Origin: an uncultured Verrucomicrobiota bacterium
GTDB lineage: Bacteria > Verrucomicrobiota > Kiritimatiellia > RZYC01
Assembly (NCBI GenBank): GCA_964542025.1
Contig: CAZISY010000001.1
Coordinates: 8,749 to 72,748 of the forward strand
Direction of reading: 5' to 3'
Length of the DNA stretch: 64,000 bases
Numbering within the stretch: position 1 is the first letter of the stretch; each line of letters begins with the position of its first letter. The notes beneath the pieces were generated by a model. That model was given only the letters and a program-made list of their open reading frames with translations. It had not been told where the DNA came from and did not search any database. The position numbers and the translations under genes were made by a program. This document shows, one piece after another, positions 43,757-49,667 of the stretch.

Positions 43757-43838
43757 GGGAGGCCGTCGCAGGAAAAATTAAGAGATGGACGGCCGTGCGC
43801 GGGGTGTTGTATACGGTGAACTCTTTTTCGGAGTCGGC

Positions 43839-45068
43839 ATGGATTTACCCTTTTCACTTTTTATTGCATTAAAATATTTGCGACCCAAACGCACCTTTAT
43901 CTCCGTGGTGACCGTCATTTCCATTCTTGGCGTGTTACTGGGCGTATCCGTTTTGGTGATCGTGCTTTCCGTGATGAGCGGATTTGACAATATGTGGCGC
44001 GACAAGATTCTGGGTTTCAATGCGCATCTCACCGTCGCCGGCTGGGACCTGATCGAAAACGATCAGGAGATCATTGAAACCGTGGAACGTGTTCCCGGTG
44101 TTCTCGGCGCGGCTCCCTATGTGCAGGGGTTGGTGTTCATCCAGCGGGGCGAGCGTATTTTCACGCCGTTTGTGCGTGGTATACAGCCCGACGAAGAGCG
44201 GAGAATAAGCCGCATCCCGGAGCATATGAGCGAGGGAGAATTTGCTCTCGAAGATGATGAAGTGCTGATCGGAAAGGATTTGGCGCTGCGCATACAGGCC
44301 GGCGTGGGCGACAAGCTGCTGCTTTATTCCCCGCGGACTTTCTCCACAGCCACCGATGAGCTGTATCTGCCGGAAGAACTGACTATTCGTGGAATTTTCG
44401 ATTTGGGTATGTGGGATTTTGATATGGGCTTCATACTTACCACCCTGGATACCGCACGCAATCTCTACGGCATCGAAAGCGGAGTCCACGGCATTCAGGT
44501 GATGACCGATGATCCATACAAGGCCGGTGATACCGCTCATCTTGTTCGGCGGGCTCTTGGCGGCGGCTACAATATCCAAACCTGGATGGAAATGAACCGC
44601 CAACTCTTCTCCGCCCTGCGCGTGGAAAAAAACATGATGTTCTTCCTGCTCATTTTCATCACCGTGGTGGCGGCCTTTGGGATTACCAACACGCTCATCA
44701 CCCTGACTGTCCAGAAAACCCGCGAAATCGGACTGTTGAAAGCGCTGGGTTACACGTCCGGCCACATCATGCGCATATTCATTTGGCAGGGTCTGATTTC
44801 AGGAGTCATCGGAACCATCGCAGGCATCGGCACCGGGTTGCTGATTCTTCACTACCGCAACGACCTGATGCGCGGCATGGCCACGCAATTCGGATGGGAG
44901 CTTTTCCCGAAAGAACTGTATCACCTGACGGAAATTCCCGCCGCCACTTCCGCGATGGACATCGCGATCATTGCCATTTCGGTCATGGTAATCTGTACGC
45001 TGGCCGGAGTGATACCGGCCTATCGCGCGGCCCGATTGGACCCCGCCAAATCATTGAGGTATGAATGA
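43839..45068 (+). CDS. Lipoprotein-release ABC transporter permease (LolC/LolE, FtsX-domain)
   Basis: MacB-like periplasmic domain and C-terminal FtsX 4-TM module. The start is taken at MDLPFS. Confidence 0.75.
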   Translation: MDLPFSLFIALKYLRPKRTFISVVTVISILGVLLGVSVLVIVLSVMSGFDNMWRDKILGFNAHLTVAGWDLIENDQEIIETVERVPGVLGAAPYVQGLVFIQRGERIFTPFVRGIQPDEERRISRIPEHMSEGEFALEDDEVLIGKDLALRIQAGVGDKLLLYSPRTFSTATDELYLPEELTIRGIFDLGMWDFDMGFILTTLDTARNLYGIESGVHGIQVMTDDPYKAGDTAHLVRRALGGGYNIQTWMEMNRQLFSALRVEKNMMFFLLIFITVVAAFGITNTLITLTVQKTREIGLLKALGYTSGHIMRIFIWQGLISGVIGTIAGIGTGLLILHYRNDLMRGMATQFGWELFPKELYHLTEIPAATSAMDIAIIAISVMVICTLAGVIPAYRAARLDPAKSLRYE

Positions 45069-45801
45069 TATGACGGAGTTAACCAGCGACGCACAACCGA
45101 TTCTCCGCTGCAATCAGGTATTCAAGCGCTACCTGTTGTTTTCGAAACCCATTGAGGTTCTGCACGGATTATCGCTGGAGGTGCGCGAGGGCGAGTCGGT
45201 ATCCATCATGGGAGCCAGCGGTGCCGGGAAAAGCACGCTGCTGCACGTCATGGGAGGGCTTGATCGGCCGGACAGCGGAACGGTGAGTTTTGGGGGGAAA
45301 GACATATACCGCTTTTCAGCGCGCCGCCGTTCTCAATGGCTGGCTCAGGAGGTGGGATTTGTGTTTCAGTCGTACCACCTGCTTCCCGAGCTCAGTATTT
45401 TGGAGAATGTGATGCTGCCGGCGATGAGCCTCAAAGGATCCCTGCGCCGCAGCGCCGCCAACCGGGCGCGTGCGCTGGAACTGCTGGATCGCGTCGGGTT
45501 ATCCGCCCGCGCGCAGCACCGCTCAACGGAACTTTCCGGGGGCGAGCAGCAGCGGGCATCCCTGGCCCGTGCGCTGATGAACAGTCCGTCGCTGCTGCTG
45601 GCGGATGAGCCTACAGGCAATCTGGACTCGACCACGGGTGATCTGGTGCTCGGCTATTTGTTTGAATTGCAGAAGGAATATGGGCAGACGCTGATTATGG
45701 TGACGCATAATGAGGCGGTATCCCGGCGGACTGATCGGCGGGTGATCCTGCGCGACGGGATGATCGTCGGTCAGAATGAAAAGGAACAAACGCATGAATA
45801 A
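45061..45801 (+). CDS. lolD: Lipoprotein-release ABC transporter ATP-binding protein
   Basis: Walker A GASGAGKST, LSGGEQQRASLARAL, Walker B LLADEPTGNLD. Overlaps the permease gene. Confidence 0.85.
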   Translation: MNDMTELTSDAQPILRCNQVFKRYLLFSKPIEVLHGLSLEVREGESVSIMGASGAGKSTLLHVMGGLDRPDSGTVSFGGKDIYRFSARRRSQWLAQEVGFVFQSYHLLPELSILENVMLPAMSLKGSLRRSAANRARALELLDRVGLSARAQHRSTELSGGEQQRASLARALMNSPSLLLADEPTGNLDSTTGDLVLGYLFELQKEYGQTLIMVTHNEAVSRRTDRRVILRDGMIVGQNEKEQTHE

Positions 45802-46246: not shown

Positions 46247-46549
46247 ATGAGTATACAGTGCGCCATTCAACCGAGAACGCAGGGCGGTGTTACGTTGTCC
46301 GTGACGGGACGTGTGGATTCTGCCACAGCTTCGCTCTTTGATGAGCAGGCGGAAAAAGCGATGAACCATTTGGCGGATGGAAGCCCGATCGTTTTGGACT
46401 TTTCCCGGGTTACCTTCATCAGCAGTATGGGTATTCGATCGCTGCTGAAACTGCGAAAAGCGCATCAGGCCCGGGGCGGCGCCGTCAGTATTATTCACAT
46501 GCAGCCTCAGGTGGCTTCCGTGCTGCAAATGGCCAATCTGTATTTCTAA
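46247..46549 (+). CDS. STAS-domain protein (anti-sigma-factor antagonist SpoIIAA-like)
   Basis: About 100 aa with the STAS fold pattern, including conserved Ser in FISSMGI. Confidence 0.7.
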   Translation: MSIQCAIQPRTQGGVTLSVTGRVDSATASLFDEQAEKAMNHLADGSPIVLDFSRVTFISSMGIRSLLKLRKAHQARGGAVSIIHMQPQVASVLQMANLYF

Positions 46550-46600: not shown

Positions 46601-46628
46601 AAAAAAAGCGGCGCTTCAGCGCCGCTTT
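46601..46628 (-). terminator. Bidirectional terminator hairpin with the strong U-tract on the minus strand
   Basis: AAAAAAA-GCGGCGC-ttca-GCGCCGC-TTTG lies between the convergent STAS gene and the fusion gene. Confidence 0.6.
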
Positions 46629-46653: not shown

Positions 46654-48825
46654 TCAGGGGACCGGGAACCCGGCCGTCAATTCGATCACCTTGCCGCGCA
46701 CGGCTTCAATCACTTTTTCATTATCGGTGTTTTTCAGTACATCCACAATGAATCCGGCGATGGCGCGCATTTGATCTTCCTTCATGCCGCGGGTGGTCAG
46801 TGCGGCTGTTCCAAGCCGAACGCCGGAGGTGACAAACGGACTCTTGGAATCGAACGGGATCGCATTTTTGTTCACCGTGATGCAGGCCTTATCCAGAGCG
46901 GTGGCTGCGTCCTTGCCGGTGACGTCGATGGGTGAAAGGTCGACCAGCATCATGTGATTGTCGGTACCGCCCGAAACAATACGCAGTCCGGCATCCTGCA
47001 GGGAGGTGGAAAGCGCCTGGGCATTTCGGATCACCTGTTGCGCGTAATCTTTGAAGGCGGGTTGAAGCGCCTCTTCAAAGCAAACCGCTTTGGCGGCGAT
47101 GACGTGCATGAGCGGCCCGCCCTGAATACCGGGGAACACCTGGCGATTGATATCTGCCGCGAAACGTTCCTGGCACAGGATCATGCCGCCGCGCGGTCCG
47201 CGCAGGGTTTTATGCGTTGTGGTGGTGACAAAATCGCAATAGGGCACCGGATTGGGATGGCACCCGGCCGCGACGAGCCCGGCGATGTGGGCCATATCCA
47301 CCATCAGGAGCGCGCCGACGCCGTCGGCAATCTGGCGGAGGCGTTTGAAGTTGATGATGCGGGAATAGGCGCTGGCGCCCGCCACAATCAATTTAGGATT
47401 GTGCTGCTCGGCCAGTTTCTGGACTTCATCGTAGTCAATGGTTTCCGTCTGACGGGAAACGCCGTAGGAGACGATGTTGTACATGCGGCCGGAGAAGTTC
47501 ATTTTATTGCCGTGCGTCAGGTGTCCGCCGTCCGCAAGGCTCATGGCCAGAATGGTATCGCCGGGGTTGAGCACGGTGAAATAAACGGCCATATTGGCCT
47601 GGCTTCCGCTGTGCGGCTGCACATTGGCCTGTTCCGCGCCGAAGAGTTTGAGCGCGCGATCAATGGCCAGGCGTTCGGCGGCGTCCACAAATTCACAGCC
47701 GTTATACCAGCGCTTGGCGGGATAGCCTTCGGCATACTTGTTGGTCATAACGGAACCGGTCGCGTCGCGCACGGCCCGGCTGGCGTAATTTTCCGACGCA
47801 ATCAGCTCCAGATTTTCGCGTTGGCGTTTGGCCTCGCTGCGGAGTGCGTTGTATATCTCCGGATCCGTGTCATAAATAGCCACAGGATCGGCATTTTGGT
47901 TCATGCAGGCCTGAATTTTGGCCACGCGGCGCTCGTGGCGTCCGCCGGCTTCAAAGGCGGCATCCAGCCAGGCGTTGATGATGGCCTCGGCCTCTTCCGG
48001 CGTGGTGAGCGAAGCGCCGAGAGCGAGGACGTTGGCATTGTTGTGGGCGCGGGCCAGCTGAGCCATTTTCGCCGTGGTGCAGAGGGCGGCACGCACGCGC
48101 GGGAATTTATTGGCGACGATGGAAACGCCGATGCCGGTCGTGCAGATTACGATCCCCATATCGACACGGCCTTCATTGATTTTGAGGGCGACGGCGGCGG
48201 CATAATCCGGGTAGTCCACGGCGTCCGCGCTGTTACATCCCTGATCCAGCACTTCGAGTCCCTTGCCGGAGAGAAATTTGATCAGGTGGGTTTTTAATTC
48301 AAAACCGCCGTGATCCGATCCGATTGCAATTTTCATGGTACACATCCTCTCTGCGTTTTTTTGCAGGGGCGCTCCCTGGTGTTTCATAAACAAGGCCAAA
48401 TCCGGGATGACGGCATTCAGTTCATCACGGGTTTTTCTGTATTGACCCGGCGACTGCCCGAACGGATCGCTCACATCCTCATCGGTGAGAGCCACGCCGA
48501 ACGAACGAAACAGGCGCACTTTGGAGGCGGCTTCCGGCGATAATCGGCACACAGCCTCCCGATGGGCGCAGGTCATTACCACGATCAGGTCTGCTTCGTC
48601 AATCATCTCCCGGGTCAAAGATCGGCTGCGGTGTCCGGATAAATCAATGCCCAGTTCGCTCAGAGCGCTTTGGGCATATGCGGAAGCGGGCATGCCGTCC
48701 GCTGCGGAAATCCCGGCCGATGAGCACTGCACATCAAGCGAACCGCCGACCATGTGGCGGAATAAATACTCCGCCATGGGGCTTCGGCAGGTGTTGCCGG
48801 AGCAAACGAATAGAACACGTTTCAT
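46654..48825 (-). CDS. glyA: Tri-domain fusion: low-molecular-weight protein-tyrosine phosphatase, ribose-5-phosphate isomerase B and serine hydroxymethyltransferase
   Basis: One uninterrupted 723-aa ORF. Residues ~1-150 carry the LMW-PTP CX5R motif (VCSGNTCRS). Residues ~163-305 are RpiB/LacAB ([11 protein letters not shown]). Residues ~310-723 are full-length SHMT ([11 protein letters not shown]-Lys region [11 protein letters not shown]). Confidence 0.8.
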
Positions 48826-49667
48826 TACAGGATCGTCGTCTTGGTCAGCGCCAGCATGGTCTTCCAGAGTTTGTCAGAATCTTTTTGTTCCAGAATTTTA
48901 TCACGGGCTTCCTTTTTCTGAAAAATCTGAGCCATGCCCGCGAGCAGTTTCAGGTAGAACGCGCTGGCGGCGGTGGGAATCACCACAAAGATCACGATGC
49001 GGGTCAACTTGGAGGCGTCGTTGTCGTATTTGAATCCGTTTTTGCTGGTGGCAACGGCGACGGTTAAACCGCCGCCTTCCACGCCGCGAACGTGCGGGAA
49101 GGCGAGGCCGTGGTCCAGCGCGGTGCTGACAATAGCTTCGCGTTTCAGAGCGGCTTCCGTCAGGGCGGCAGCATCATTGATGAAATTTTCTTTCTGCATA
49201 CGGGCGGCGAGTTCCGCAATGATTTCTTCTTTGGTCGTGGCCTCGCTGTGGGCGATCATGAGGTTCGGCGAGGAGAAACGGCTTAAGCCGGCCTGGACCT
49301 GTCCGGCGAATCGGTGCGTTTTCTGGGCGATGCGCGTCGGCAGTTCTTTGGAAGGGGCGTAGAGGATGCGGGCGCAGTTTGGGCAGACGTGCAGCTCCGT
49401 GGCGGCTTTGACGGCGTGTACGCGGCTGACCGGAAGGCCCATTCCGCACCCGGTGCATGTGCCGTTGGAAATGGGAACGATGGCGATGTGATGTTTGTTG
49501 TGCAGCTTGGTGAATTGGTCGCGGATTTCAGAGGGGAGGCTTTCGAGGTAGGTTTCGATGGATTTGTTCAGCTGTTCCAGGCGTCCGTTGGTTGATGTGG
49601 CGCTTTGCTGGGCCAGCGCCTCCATGAGTTCCTGTAACTGGATGAGCTGATTGATGATTCTTTTCAT
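48825..49667 (-). CDS. PtsN-like PTS EIIA type-2 (nitrogen-regulatory) domain protein with an N-terminal C4 zinc-ribbon/coiled-coil domain
   Basis: C-terminus has the GLAFPH(V) phospho-His motif in an EIIA-2 fold. N-terminus has CTGCG...CPNC. Overlaps the fusion gene start by 1 nt (TAATG). Confidence 0.6.

Follow-up and report, generated by a model that had tools for sequence, protein, structure and literature searches.

The question raised by this locus is whether a phosphatase, a sugar-phosphate isomerase and a serine hydroxymethyltransferase (SHMT) share one reading frame and, if they do, whether one protein or two would be made from it. In the window (the whole 64,000-nucleotide stretch analyzed here), a 723-aa ORF on the minus strand (46654..48825; 723 codons plus stop; identical to the public protein P0271) begins with ATG and, as the original prediction had it without giving the strand, contains no internal stops. 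All features described below lie on this strand. Pfam orders the ORF as LMWPc at aa 4–143 (1e-32), LacAB_rpiB at aa 166–304 (6e-55) and SHMT at aa 319–693 (5e-168). Full-length Pfam and NCBIfam matches bear out the claim of three complete domains in that order, and the P-loop, the RpiB motif and the PLP-lysine region that had been named are all found in the sequence. The gene is a covalent three-domain ORF with complete domains and intact catalytic residues. Because these residues are kept in all three domains, the product is most likely a trifunctional phosphatase/ribose-5-phosphate isomerase/SHMT polypeptide, the activities being predicted from sequence. The stop codon of a 280-aa upstream gene (Zn_ribbon_9 + PTS_EIIA_2, 48825..49667) overlaps the fusion start (TAATG). 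The nearest relatives L001–L003, L171, and L172 have this neighbor too, and the two genes probably share one operon. A terminator-like GC hairpin with a T-run (46605..46628) follows 26 nt past the stop codon of the fusion gene.

Could the frame be an error? In that case the phosphatase would really have a gene of its own ahead of rpiB-glyA, as in the nearest relatives, and a sequencing or assembly mistake would have joined the two at the phosphatase–RpiB junction. All five nearest sister clusters (76–92% identity) are indeed split, the change relative to the 92% relative is a single-nucleotide length difference plus the loss of a TAA, and there is an A7 run a few bases before the junction. However, the indel relative to L004 falls outside any homopolymer in the window, the linker has the canonical length of 22 residues with its Glu-Arg in register with other tri-fusions, and four contigs built from other samples with other assemblers (in NCBI, ENA, and Logan) encode the identical 723-aa protein. 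Two further sequences carry the junction in frame: L171, which comes from a different sample, is 5 nt away from the window gene, and the strain L172 has 126 differences over 2172 nt (5.8%), with 107 synonymous and 16 non-synonymous codon changes. The 13 linker codons show no differences between the window and L172 where about two would be expected, a shortfall that is not significant. Because independent assemblies and a diverged strain carry the same junction, we conclude that the ORF is not an assembly artifact. A collapsed stop, against which a check of the frame had been advised, is largely ruled out by L171 and L172, and we regard a junction created by error as extremely improbable.

The original prediction held the fusion to be unusual and proposed looking for it in relatives, where it turns out to be the norm of the clade. 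At the 90% identity level, more than 100 clusters carry all three Pfam domains in about 725 aa. These tri-domain clusters, at 61–72% identity, come from Kiritimatiellia, Lentisphaerae, and Verrucomicrobia, and the 50% level retains several tri-domain and RpiB-SHMT representatives. A metagenome scan with a junction-focused alignment, in which the matches listed were mostly distant relatives (40–60% identity), added at least 13 single-frame tri-fusion loci. Akkermansia and Verrucomicrobiales genomes (including L007 and L017) have the same domain order. The domain set was described for Minf_1669 of Methylacidiphilum infernorum V4, with the suggestion, shared by the original prediction, that it links serine/C1 and pentose-phosphate metabolism (Hou et al. 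2008, Biol Direct 3:26; PMC2474590). In the literature on YwlE with rpiB, Minf_1669 follow-ups, Akkermansia RpiB, and a gene-fusion survey (PMC4921024), we found no characterization of the fusion. Common as it is in the clade and on record since 2008, the tri-domain fusion is, we conclude, an already known form that is usual in both Kiritimatiellia and Verrucomicrobia, and the window gene is an uncharacterized, ordinary member.

The three genes are adjacent but separate in Bacillaceae, Omnitrophota, and Planctomycetales; among 12 Bacillales genomes with adjacent separate genes, all three are present in 10. In relatives, Sua5/TsaC, purD, and purE are found upstream; Sua5/TsaC, known as ywlC in Bacillus subtilis, has this position in several tri-fusion relatives. 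Three ancestral operon neighbors, a ywlE-type phosphatase, rpiB, and glyA, have thus probably become one reading frame. As a separate observation, in many phyla, Pelagibacteraceae and Acidobacteriota among them, rpiB and glyA lie in the same frame and only one stop codon separates them. We considered stop-codon read-through for these pairs and set it aside: tblastn ranking favors in-frame neighbors, so the pattern is probably selection bias.

The two junctions of the ORF differ in their history, and the second is the simpler. The RpiB domain (aa 164–308, 47902..48336; PF02502, 185.5 bits) matches the equivalog TIGR01120 over its full length (aa 165–306; 170.4 bits vs a cut-off of 138.65), and the LacA/LacB and DerI models stay under their cut-offs on it. 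Its D171, H172, C228, H261, R296, and H297 do not vary across the 91 homologs, 90 of which also keep N262. The catalytic Cys in (I/V)C(G/T)TG and the His-Asn of HNxAN are found, and these residues align to 3he8. The SHMT domain (aa 319–723, 46657..47871; PF00464, 559 bits) matches NF000586 over its full length (648 bits vs a cut-off of 335), and its PLP-binding Lys539 (codon 47209..47211) lies in T-T-T-T-H-K, with Lys conserved in 90 of 91. Between them, a helical linker (aa 305–320, 47866..47913) lacks a Shine–Dalgarno (SD) sequence; the in-frame Met there (ATG 47901–47903) occurs only in the subclade of the window and likewise has no SD. RpiB and SHMT are fused in all PVC-group relatives examined, and on this comparison the two were joined long ago and the junction is fixed. 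Each enzyme is a homo-oligomer, and they share no intermediate. From pathway knowledge and the gene neighborhood of relatives, not that of the window itself, we infer a rationale in nucleotide synthesis: the fusion would give 1:1 co-expression and co-assembly of two suppliers, one of ribose-5-phosphate for PRPP and the other of glycine and one-carbon units.

At the first junction the state changes repeatedly. In the five nearest sister clusters the phosphatase is a separate gene and a 560–563-aa RpiB-SHMT gene starts with ATG or GTG, and in the tree these split clusters are nested within fused forms. As judged from these comparisons, the phosphatase–RpiB junction is evolutionarily labile, a "soft" fusion, and lineages switch between fused and split through 1–2-nt indels or stop codons. 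The lability and the internal ribosome-binding-like site and start codon retained there had both gone unmentioned in the original prediction. The linker (aa 144–163, 48337..48396) is variable across 91 homologs save for E159-R160 and M164. The ATG of Met164 (48334..48336) is the ancestral RpiB start, as conservation and the start of the split genes indicate, and a putative internal initiation site; this Met is kept in 81 of 91 tri-fusions and is the called start of RpiB-SHMT in the nearest relatives. The codons of Glu159-Arg160 spell GAGAGG (48346..48351), which lies 9 nt upstream of the ATG and is the sole SD-like hexamer site in the whole window gene. Fused forms have an SD-like GAAAGG, read as Glu-Arg, at the same 9 nt, and split loci have AGGA/AAGGA 6–8 nt before the rpiB ATG, homologous to the GAGAGG site of the window.

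Codon choice bears on whether this element is kept as RNA or as protein. The linker Glu-Arg is encoded as GAA/GAG-AGG/AGA, at exactly 9 nt from the ATG, in 7/7 fused genes and in L099. AGR makes up 2–10% of Arg codons in these fused genes, and in L166 and L167 the linker AGR is the only one in the gene. In high-GC fused genes the linker Glu uses GAA, their minority codon. The test rests on 8 genes (nucleotide identity 64–78%) of the roughly 90 tri-fusions of the Glu-Arg/Met type, because the metagenome matches listed contained only two more such loci (L085 and L099). As background, SD-like motifs precede 8–12% of internal ATGs elsewhere, and of the long ORFs in the window, no more than about one-third to 60% have an SD-like 4-mer at a candidate start.

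The RNA of this predicted disordered linker of about 20 residues still bears the rpiB SD (GAGAGG) and ATG, and we postulate that ribosomes make both the 723-aa protein and, from the internal start, a 560-aa RpiB-SHMT. That RpiB-SHMT is also translated on its own is probable on these sequence features. The fuller reading, in which the linker is a working internal ribosome-binding site giving two products, fused/split switching is almost neutral with at least 5 independent state changes, and Glu-Arg is an RNA signal, we put forward tentatively. Conservation of Glu-Arg could also have a protein-level cause. If the enzyme were obligately trifunctional, the 723-aa protein would be the sole product, internal initiation would be absent, and the Glu-Arg and Met of the linker would serve the protein through a salt bridge or a docking contact. 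Tri-fusions of Verrucomicrobiales, Akkermansia, and soil lineages, including L007 and L017, lack the Met or SD at junction 1, as do 11 of the 13 metagenome single-frame loci listed. Their existence means that a full-length-only product is viable. Charged residues are moreover common in linkers, and SD use in the window genome looks moderate. Yet a purely protein-level role sits poorly with AGG/AGA for the linker Arg in 8/8 genes against its scarcity elsewhere in them, with a minority GAA for Glu in high-GC genes, with an element that matches the SD of split relatives in both sequence and spacing, and with a linker predicted to be disordered. The frequent fused/split switching further argues that the covalent linkage is non-essential. 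We therefore consider an obligate enzyme possible but rather unlikely. In the AF2 model, a prediction that had been proposed, pLDDT falls below 50 only at aa 151–162, which fits a disordered tether; with a pTM of 0.63 and such a tether we make no claim about domain packing.

The remaining question is what the phosphatase does. The N-terminal domain (aa 4–143, 48397..48816) matches PF01451 at 113.7 bits (cut-off 23.2) over profile positions 1–143 of 144, and contains both the CX5R(S/T) P-loop and the DP general acid (Asp120-Pro121). The P-loop reads C8-S-G-N-T12-C-R14-S15 (48781..48804), with the catalytic Cys and Arg in place. Its C, G, N, C, R, and S are invariant in all 87–88 of the 91 tri-fusion homologs that are ungapped there, and Asp120-Pro121 is invariant in the alignment of 91. 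At P-loop position 5, Thr is the phosphoarginine determinant and Ile is found in canonical tyrosine phosphatases (PMC7772506). The window has Thr12, as a YwlE-type protein arginine phosphatase does; among 88 ungapped homologs this position is V36/I33/T13. Compared with PDB entries, aa 1–150 score 87–101 bits with YwlE, 57–66 with Wzb/AmsI, and at most 47 with ArsC, the top matches being 4egs and then the YwlE structures 4pic, 4kk3, and 1zgg. (4egs is an LMW phosphatase, yet was deposited under the name "RpiB".) By sequence, the nearest relative of the domain is protein arginine phosphatase YwlE. Of the "LMW-PTP/ArsC-like" label given at first, the LMW phosphatase part holds and the ArsC part does not, ArsC models and structures scoring far under the YwlE/LMW-PTP ones.

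The original prediction also suggested that the phosphatase might have a regulatory role or act on a phospho-sugar; on this idea it could directly regulate the attached RpiB or SHMT, making the fusion a metabolic control module. Consistent with such a role, it is persistently next to or fused with rpiB and glyA in different phyla, L037 fuses LMWPc to SHMT with RpiB missing, and its catalytic residues are conserved. The kinship with YwlE and the phosphoarginine-type Thr point elsewhere, however; the phosphatase junction is dispensable in many lineages, and the AF2 model, with its disordered tether, predicts no confident inter-domain packing. In the literature consulted, we found no member of this phosphatase family reported to act on sugar phosphates. 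The phospho-sugar role is thus unsupported, and a control module seems improbable to us.

Taken as a whole, we consider it likely that the locus consists of clade-typical fused operon neighbors with a fixed RpiB-SHMT core and a soft, dual-product first junction. It matters in three practical respects. In annotation, NCBI records give these 720-aa proteins the name "ribose 5-phosphate isomerase B" alone, and JGI uses either that name or "glycine hydroxymethyltransferase". With such single-function names, glyA, rpiB, or the phosphatase can be overlooked when the metabolism of Kiritimatiellia, Verrucomicrobia, and Akkermansia is reconstructed. In function, the phosphatase is tied to rpiB and glyA across phyla as neighbors, as two-domain fusions (RpiB-SHMT, LMWPc-RpiB, LMWPc-SHMT), and as the tri-fusion, a strong and unexplained association for YwlE-like phosphatases outside Gram-positives. 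In evolution, if the internal start is true, the locus would be a clean natural example of operon neighbors that fuse and split yet keep their translation signals, and a warning that a linker motif may be conserved as an RNA signal. These points leave the verdict as it was: the fusion is ordinary for its clade.

Several known systems frame this view. Minf_1669, by its published description, likewise carries LMW phosphatase, RpiB, and SHMT in one protein within the PVC superphylum, but its host is a Verrucomicrobia methanotroph, whereas the window comes from Kiritimatiellia, a different phylum-level lineage. The ywlE-rpiB-glyA neighborhood of Bacillaceae (B. subtilis gene names ywlE, ywlF, and ywlG) has the same genes in the same order as the window ORF; there, however, each is a gene of its own, and another gene of about 0.7–1.2 kb sits between rpiB and glyA. 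YwlE (PDB 4kk3, 1zgg, 4pic) is the best-scoring characterized structural relative of aa 1–150 and shares with the fusion domain the DP general acid and the P-loop, whose fifth position is Thr in both. It differs in standing alone and partnering the McsB kinase in Gram-positives, and in most tri-fusion homologs Val or Ile takes the place of its Thr. The RpiB structures of Clostridium thermocellum (3he8, 147 bits) and Escherichia coli (1nn4) match the fusion RpiB over its full length (139–147 bits), but these proteins of about 150 aa stand alone, while the C terminus of the fusion RpiB runs straight into SHMT. Bacterial GlyA, finally, is a full-length match to the fusion SHMT with a conserved PLP-Lys motif; unlike GlyA, the fusion SHMT has no start codon or ribosome-binding site of its own in most relatives.

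An ORF search of the window returned a 723-aa frame at 46654-48825 on the minus strand, with an ATG start and no internal stops. Pfam matched three non-overlapping, essentially full-length domains on that strand: LMWPc (low-molecular-weight [LMW] phosphatase; aa 4-143, 1e-32), LacAB_rpiB (aa 166-304, 6e-55), and SHMT (serine hydroxymethyltransferase; aa 319-693, 5e-168). In NCBIfam, the middle domain scored 170 bits against the rpiB equivalog TIGR01120 (cut-off 138.65) and fell under the cut-offs of the LacA/LacB and DerI models, and the C-terminal domain scored 648 bits against NF000586 (cut-off 335). These searches bear out the single three-domain ORF of the original prediction and add its strand. 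An AlphaFold2 model built from a homolog alignment contained three confident domains (mean pLDDT 88), with pLDDT below 50 solely at residues 151-162 and a helical RpiB-to-SHMT junction (junction 2) at pLDDT 65-75; at a pTM of 0.63, the mutual placement of the domains is undefined.

An assembly artefact or a collapsed stop is very unlikely as the source of the fusion, because independent records agree and synonymous changes are in excess in every domain. Four contigs in public collections (NCBI, ENA, and Logan) encode the exact 723-aa protein (P0271). The read-through recurs in a Logan assembly of SRR8925805 (L171), which shows 5 nt differences over 5172 nt of the window and shares its junction, and in a diverged locus from another ENA sample (L172), which differs at 126 of 2172 nt and has an identical in-frame junction (...CAAAAAAACGCAGAGAGGATGTGTACCATG...). 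Codon changes in L172 comprise 107 synonymous and 16 non-synonymous (phosphatase 19/8, RpiB 19/3, SHMT 69/5).

The architecture is also widespread among relatives. More than 100 clusters came out of a protein search, at 61-72% identity and with lengths of about 720-735 aa; every one contains the three Pfam domains, and the source MAGs belong to Kiritimatiellia, Lentisphaerae, and Verrucomicrobia. Distinct representatives at the 50%-cluster level include P0121, P0122, P0139, and P0257 (the last by length) for the tri-domain form and P0123-125, P0127, and P0204 for RpiB-SHMT. When GTDB species genomes were sorted by domains sharing one stop-free frame, two MAGs, L007 (Verrucomicrobiales) and L017 (Akkermansia), had the same order, confirmed by Pfam; RpiB-SHMT di-fusions were present in Verrucomicrobiota and Akkermansiaceae, with sporadic cases in Acidobacteria and Coriobacteriales, and Bacillaceae, Omnitrophota, and Planctomycetales carry three separate, adjoining genes in the order of the fusion. 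Metagenome contigs held at least 13 further single-frame tri-fusions. The original prediction's view of the fusion as unusual does not survive this spread and a 2008 report of the protein Minf_1669; we conclude that the fusion is real, reproducible, clade-typical, and already described. NCBI labels the tri-domain proteins 'ribose 5-phosphate isomerase B', and the same protein is named either so or 'glycine hydroxymethyltransferase' depending on the source. Many homologs are recorded at 707 aa with the start MAEY..., which would leave them without the catalytic Cys; because the P-loop (MAKQREIIVVCTGNVCRSP) lies in frame 5' of the recorded start, with an ATG, in L169:2911-3030, the 707-aa forms are start-codon miscalls.

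Residues 1-150 gave as best matches the YwlE arginine phosphatases 4pic, 4kk3, and 1zgg (87-101 bits, PDB search), against 57-66 bits for the Wzb/AmsI tyrosine phosphatases and at most 47 bits for ArsC. The best PDB match, 4egs, is deposited as 'Ribose 5-phosphate isomerase RpiB' and aligns to the LMW-phosphatase domain; the name seems to have been carried over during annotation, from the neighborhood or fusion that phosphatase and rpiB conserve. The window P-loop, C-S-G-N-T-C-R-S, has Thr at position 5, a residue reported to confer phosphoarginine specificity (in a passage of PMC7772506 citing Fuhrmann 2013). Because position 5 varies across the 91 aligned tri-fusion homologs (Val 36, Ile 33, Thr 13), the substrate class is uncertain family-wide, and phosphoarginine is at most suggested for the window phosphatase. 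A role on phospho-sugars, proposed originally, found no support, YwlE being the best match. Among the 91 homologs, the phosphatase Cys, Arg, and Asp-Pro are invariant, as are RpiB D171, H172, C228, H261, R296, and H297; RpiB N262 and SHMT K539 are each kept in 90.

The two junctions behave differently. Junction 2 is fused in all PVC-group relatives examined, it lacks any Shine-Dalgarno (SD)-like sequence, and its in-frame Met (ATG 47901-47903) is limited to the window's subclade. At the phosphatase-to-RpiB junction (junction 1), all of the nearest sister clusters (P0001/P0272/P0273/P0275-277, about 92%; P0054, P0058, and P0061, 80%; P0114, 76%) encode the phosphatase separately, ahead of a 560-563-aa RpiB-SHMT. 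The split takes the form of one extra nucleotide plus TAA in L004, two in-frame stops in L001, and a frame change plus TAA in L002 and L003. An NJ tree built on the RpiB-SHMT part places this split clade, together with the window, deep among fused forms, and further splits are scattered (Pontiella L005, L006, L008, and L010). The differing modes and the scatter imply five or more changes of state at junction 1. The fusion was either kept or regained in the window lineage, parsimony favoring re-fusion. This contrast, junction 1 labile and junction 2 fixed, is added by the present analysis.

We also add evidence for a retained putative internal start signal at junction 1. All split loci carry AGGA/AAGGA 6-8 nt 5' of the rpiB ATG or GTG, and this element recurs in the window (AGAGAGGA, 8 nt, ATG), where it is read in frame as Glu159-Arg160. 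The linker of fused relatives has the canonical 22-residue length in 53 of 91 homologs, window included, and is variable save at positions 159 (Glu 54/91), 160 (Arg 48, Lys 20), and Met164 (81/91). Across all seven fused genes with DNA plus the locus L099, at only 64-78% DNA identity, Glu-Arg is written GAA/GAG plus AGG/AGA and ends 9 nt before the ATG in every case. These genes use AGR for only 2-10% of their Arg codons, L166 and L167 contain no AGR besides the linker codon, and the high-GC genes use GAA for a minority of their Glu codons. An SD-like 4-mer stands ahead of 8% of the internal in-frame ATGs of long ORFs in the window and of 12% of those in the compared genes, versus the RpiB Met in 7 of 8 genes; within the 2172-nt window gene, SD-like hexamers were found at junction 1 only. 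These patterns point to an internal ribosome-binding site under selection at the nucleotide level, from which RpiB-SHMT would be translated independently too. Neither Met nor SD is present at junction 1 in the tri-fusions of Verrucomicrobiales and Akkermansia or in most of the soil-type ones, so a full-length-only product is viable as well.

Other combinations were seen. Verrucomicrobia bacterium AV68 (L037:2813-4615, QHNV01000102.1) encodes a 601-aa, Pfam-confirmed LMWPc-SHMT ORF with no RpiB domain, and the phosphatase directly adjoins glyA without rpiB in L046 (Chthoniobacterales) and L049 (Clostridia); its association is therefore not RpiB-specific. LMWPc and RpiB share one frame in two metagenome contigs, with SHMT separate in L104 and not detected on the 2.7-kb L106, so each pairwise domain combination exists somewhere as a fusion. 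Separately, rpiB and glyA share a reading frame in L015, L019, L020, L031, L032, L035, L036, and L066, which span many unrelated phyla (Pelagibacteraceae, Acidobacteriota, and Marinimicrobia among them); glyA's stop-free stretch opens directly behind the stop codon of rpiB. A tblastn ranking bias toward in-frame neighbors may explain this pattern, or it could be a sign of frequent fusion and fission.

The fusion ATG overlaps the stop (TAATG) of a 280-aa gene directly upstream (48825-49667, minus strand) encoding a C4 zinc ribbon (Zn_ribbon_9) and a PtsN-like PTS EIIA-2 domain (PTS_EIIA_2), and a GC-rich hairpin with a T-run (46628..46605) lies 3' of the fusion stop. This His-phosphorylatable EIIA-type protein is kept beside the phosphatase in the window's subclade (L001-L003, L171, L172) and is absent in more distant relatives, where Sua5/TsaC (ywlC in B. 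subtilis) lies upstream instead, along with purD, purE, and an S41 peptidase. Convergent neighbors downstream (46247-46549 and 43785-45801, plus strand), namely a STAS-domain protein of the anti-sigma-factor antagonist type, a 152-aa ORF that matched nothing in Pfam, and an ABC transporter pair of the MacB/FtsX type, are kept in L171 and L172 and are unrelated to the fusion.

By the established chemistry of their reactions, RpiB and SHMT have no intermediate in common, and channelling between them is therefore unlikely. The most economical reading is that two homo-oligomeric enzymes would be co-expressed in stoichiometric amounts and co-assembled. Jointly, they may supply nucleotide synthesis with ribose-5-phosphate for PRPP, with glycine, and with one-carbon units, a rationale weakly supported because purD and purE neighbor the tri-fusion in relatives. 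By sequence, the phosphatase retains an intact catalytic site yet is loosely coupled. Our literature search found no follow-up on the Minf_1669-type fusion after Hou et al. 2008 (PMC2474590), who called this Methylacidiphilum infernorum product, which combines SHMT, LMW-phosphatase, and RpiB domains, 'an unusual protein'; their metabolic inference is the same as that of the original prediction, a link between pentose-phosphate and C1/serine metabolism.
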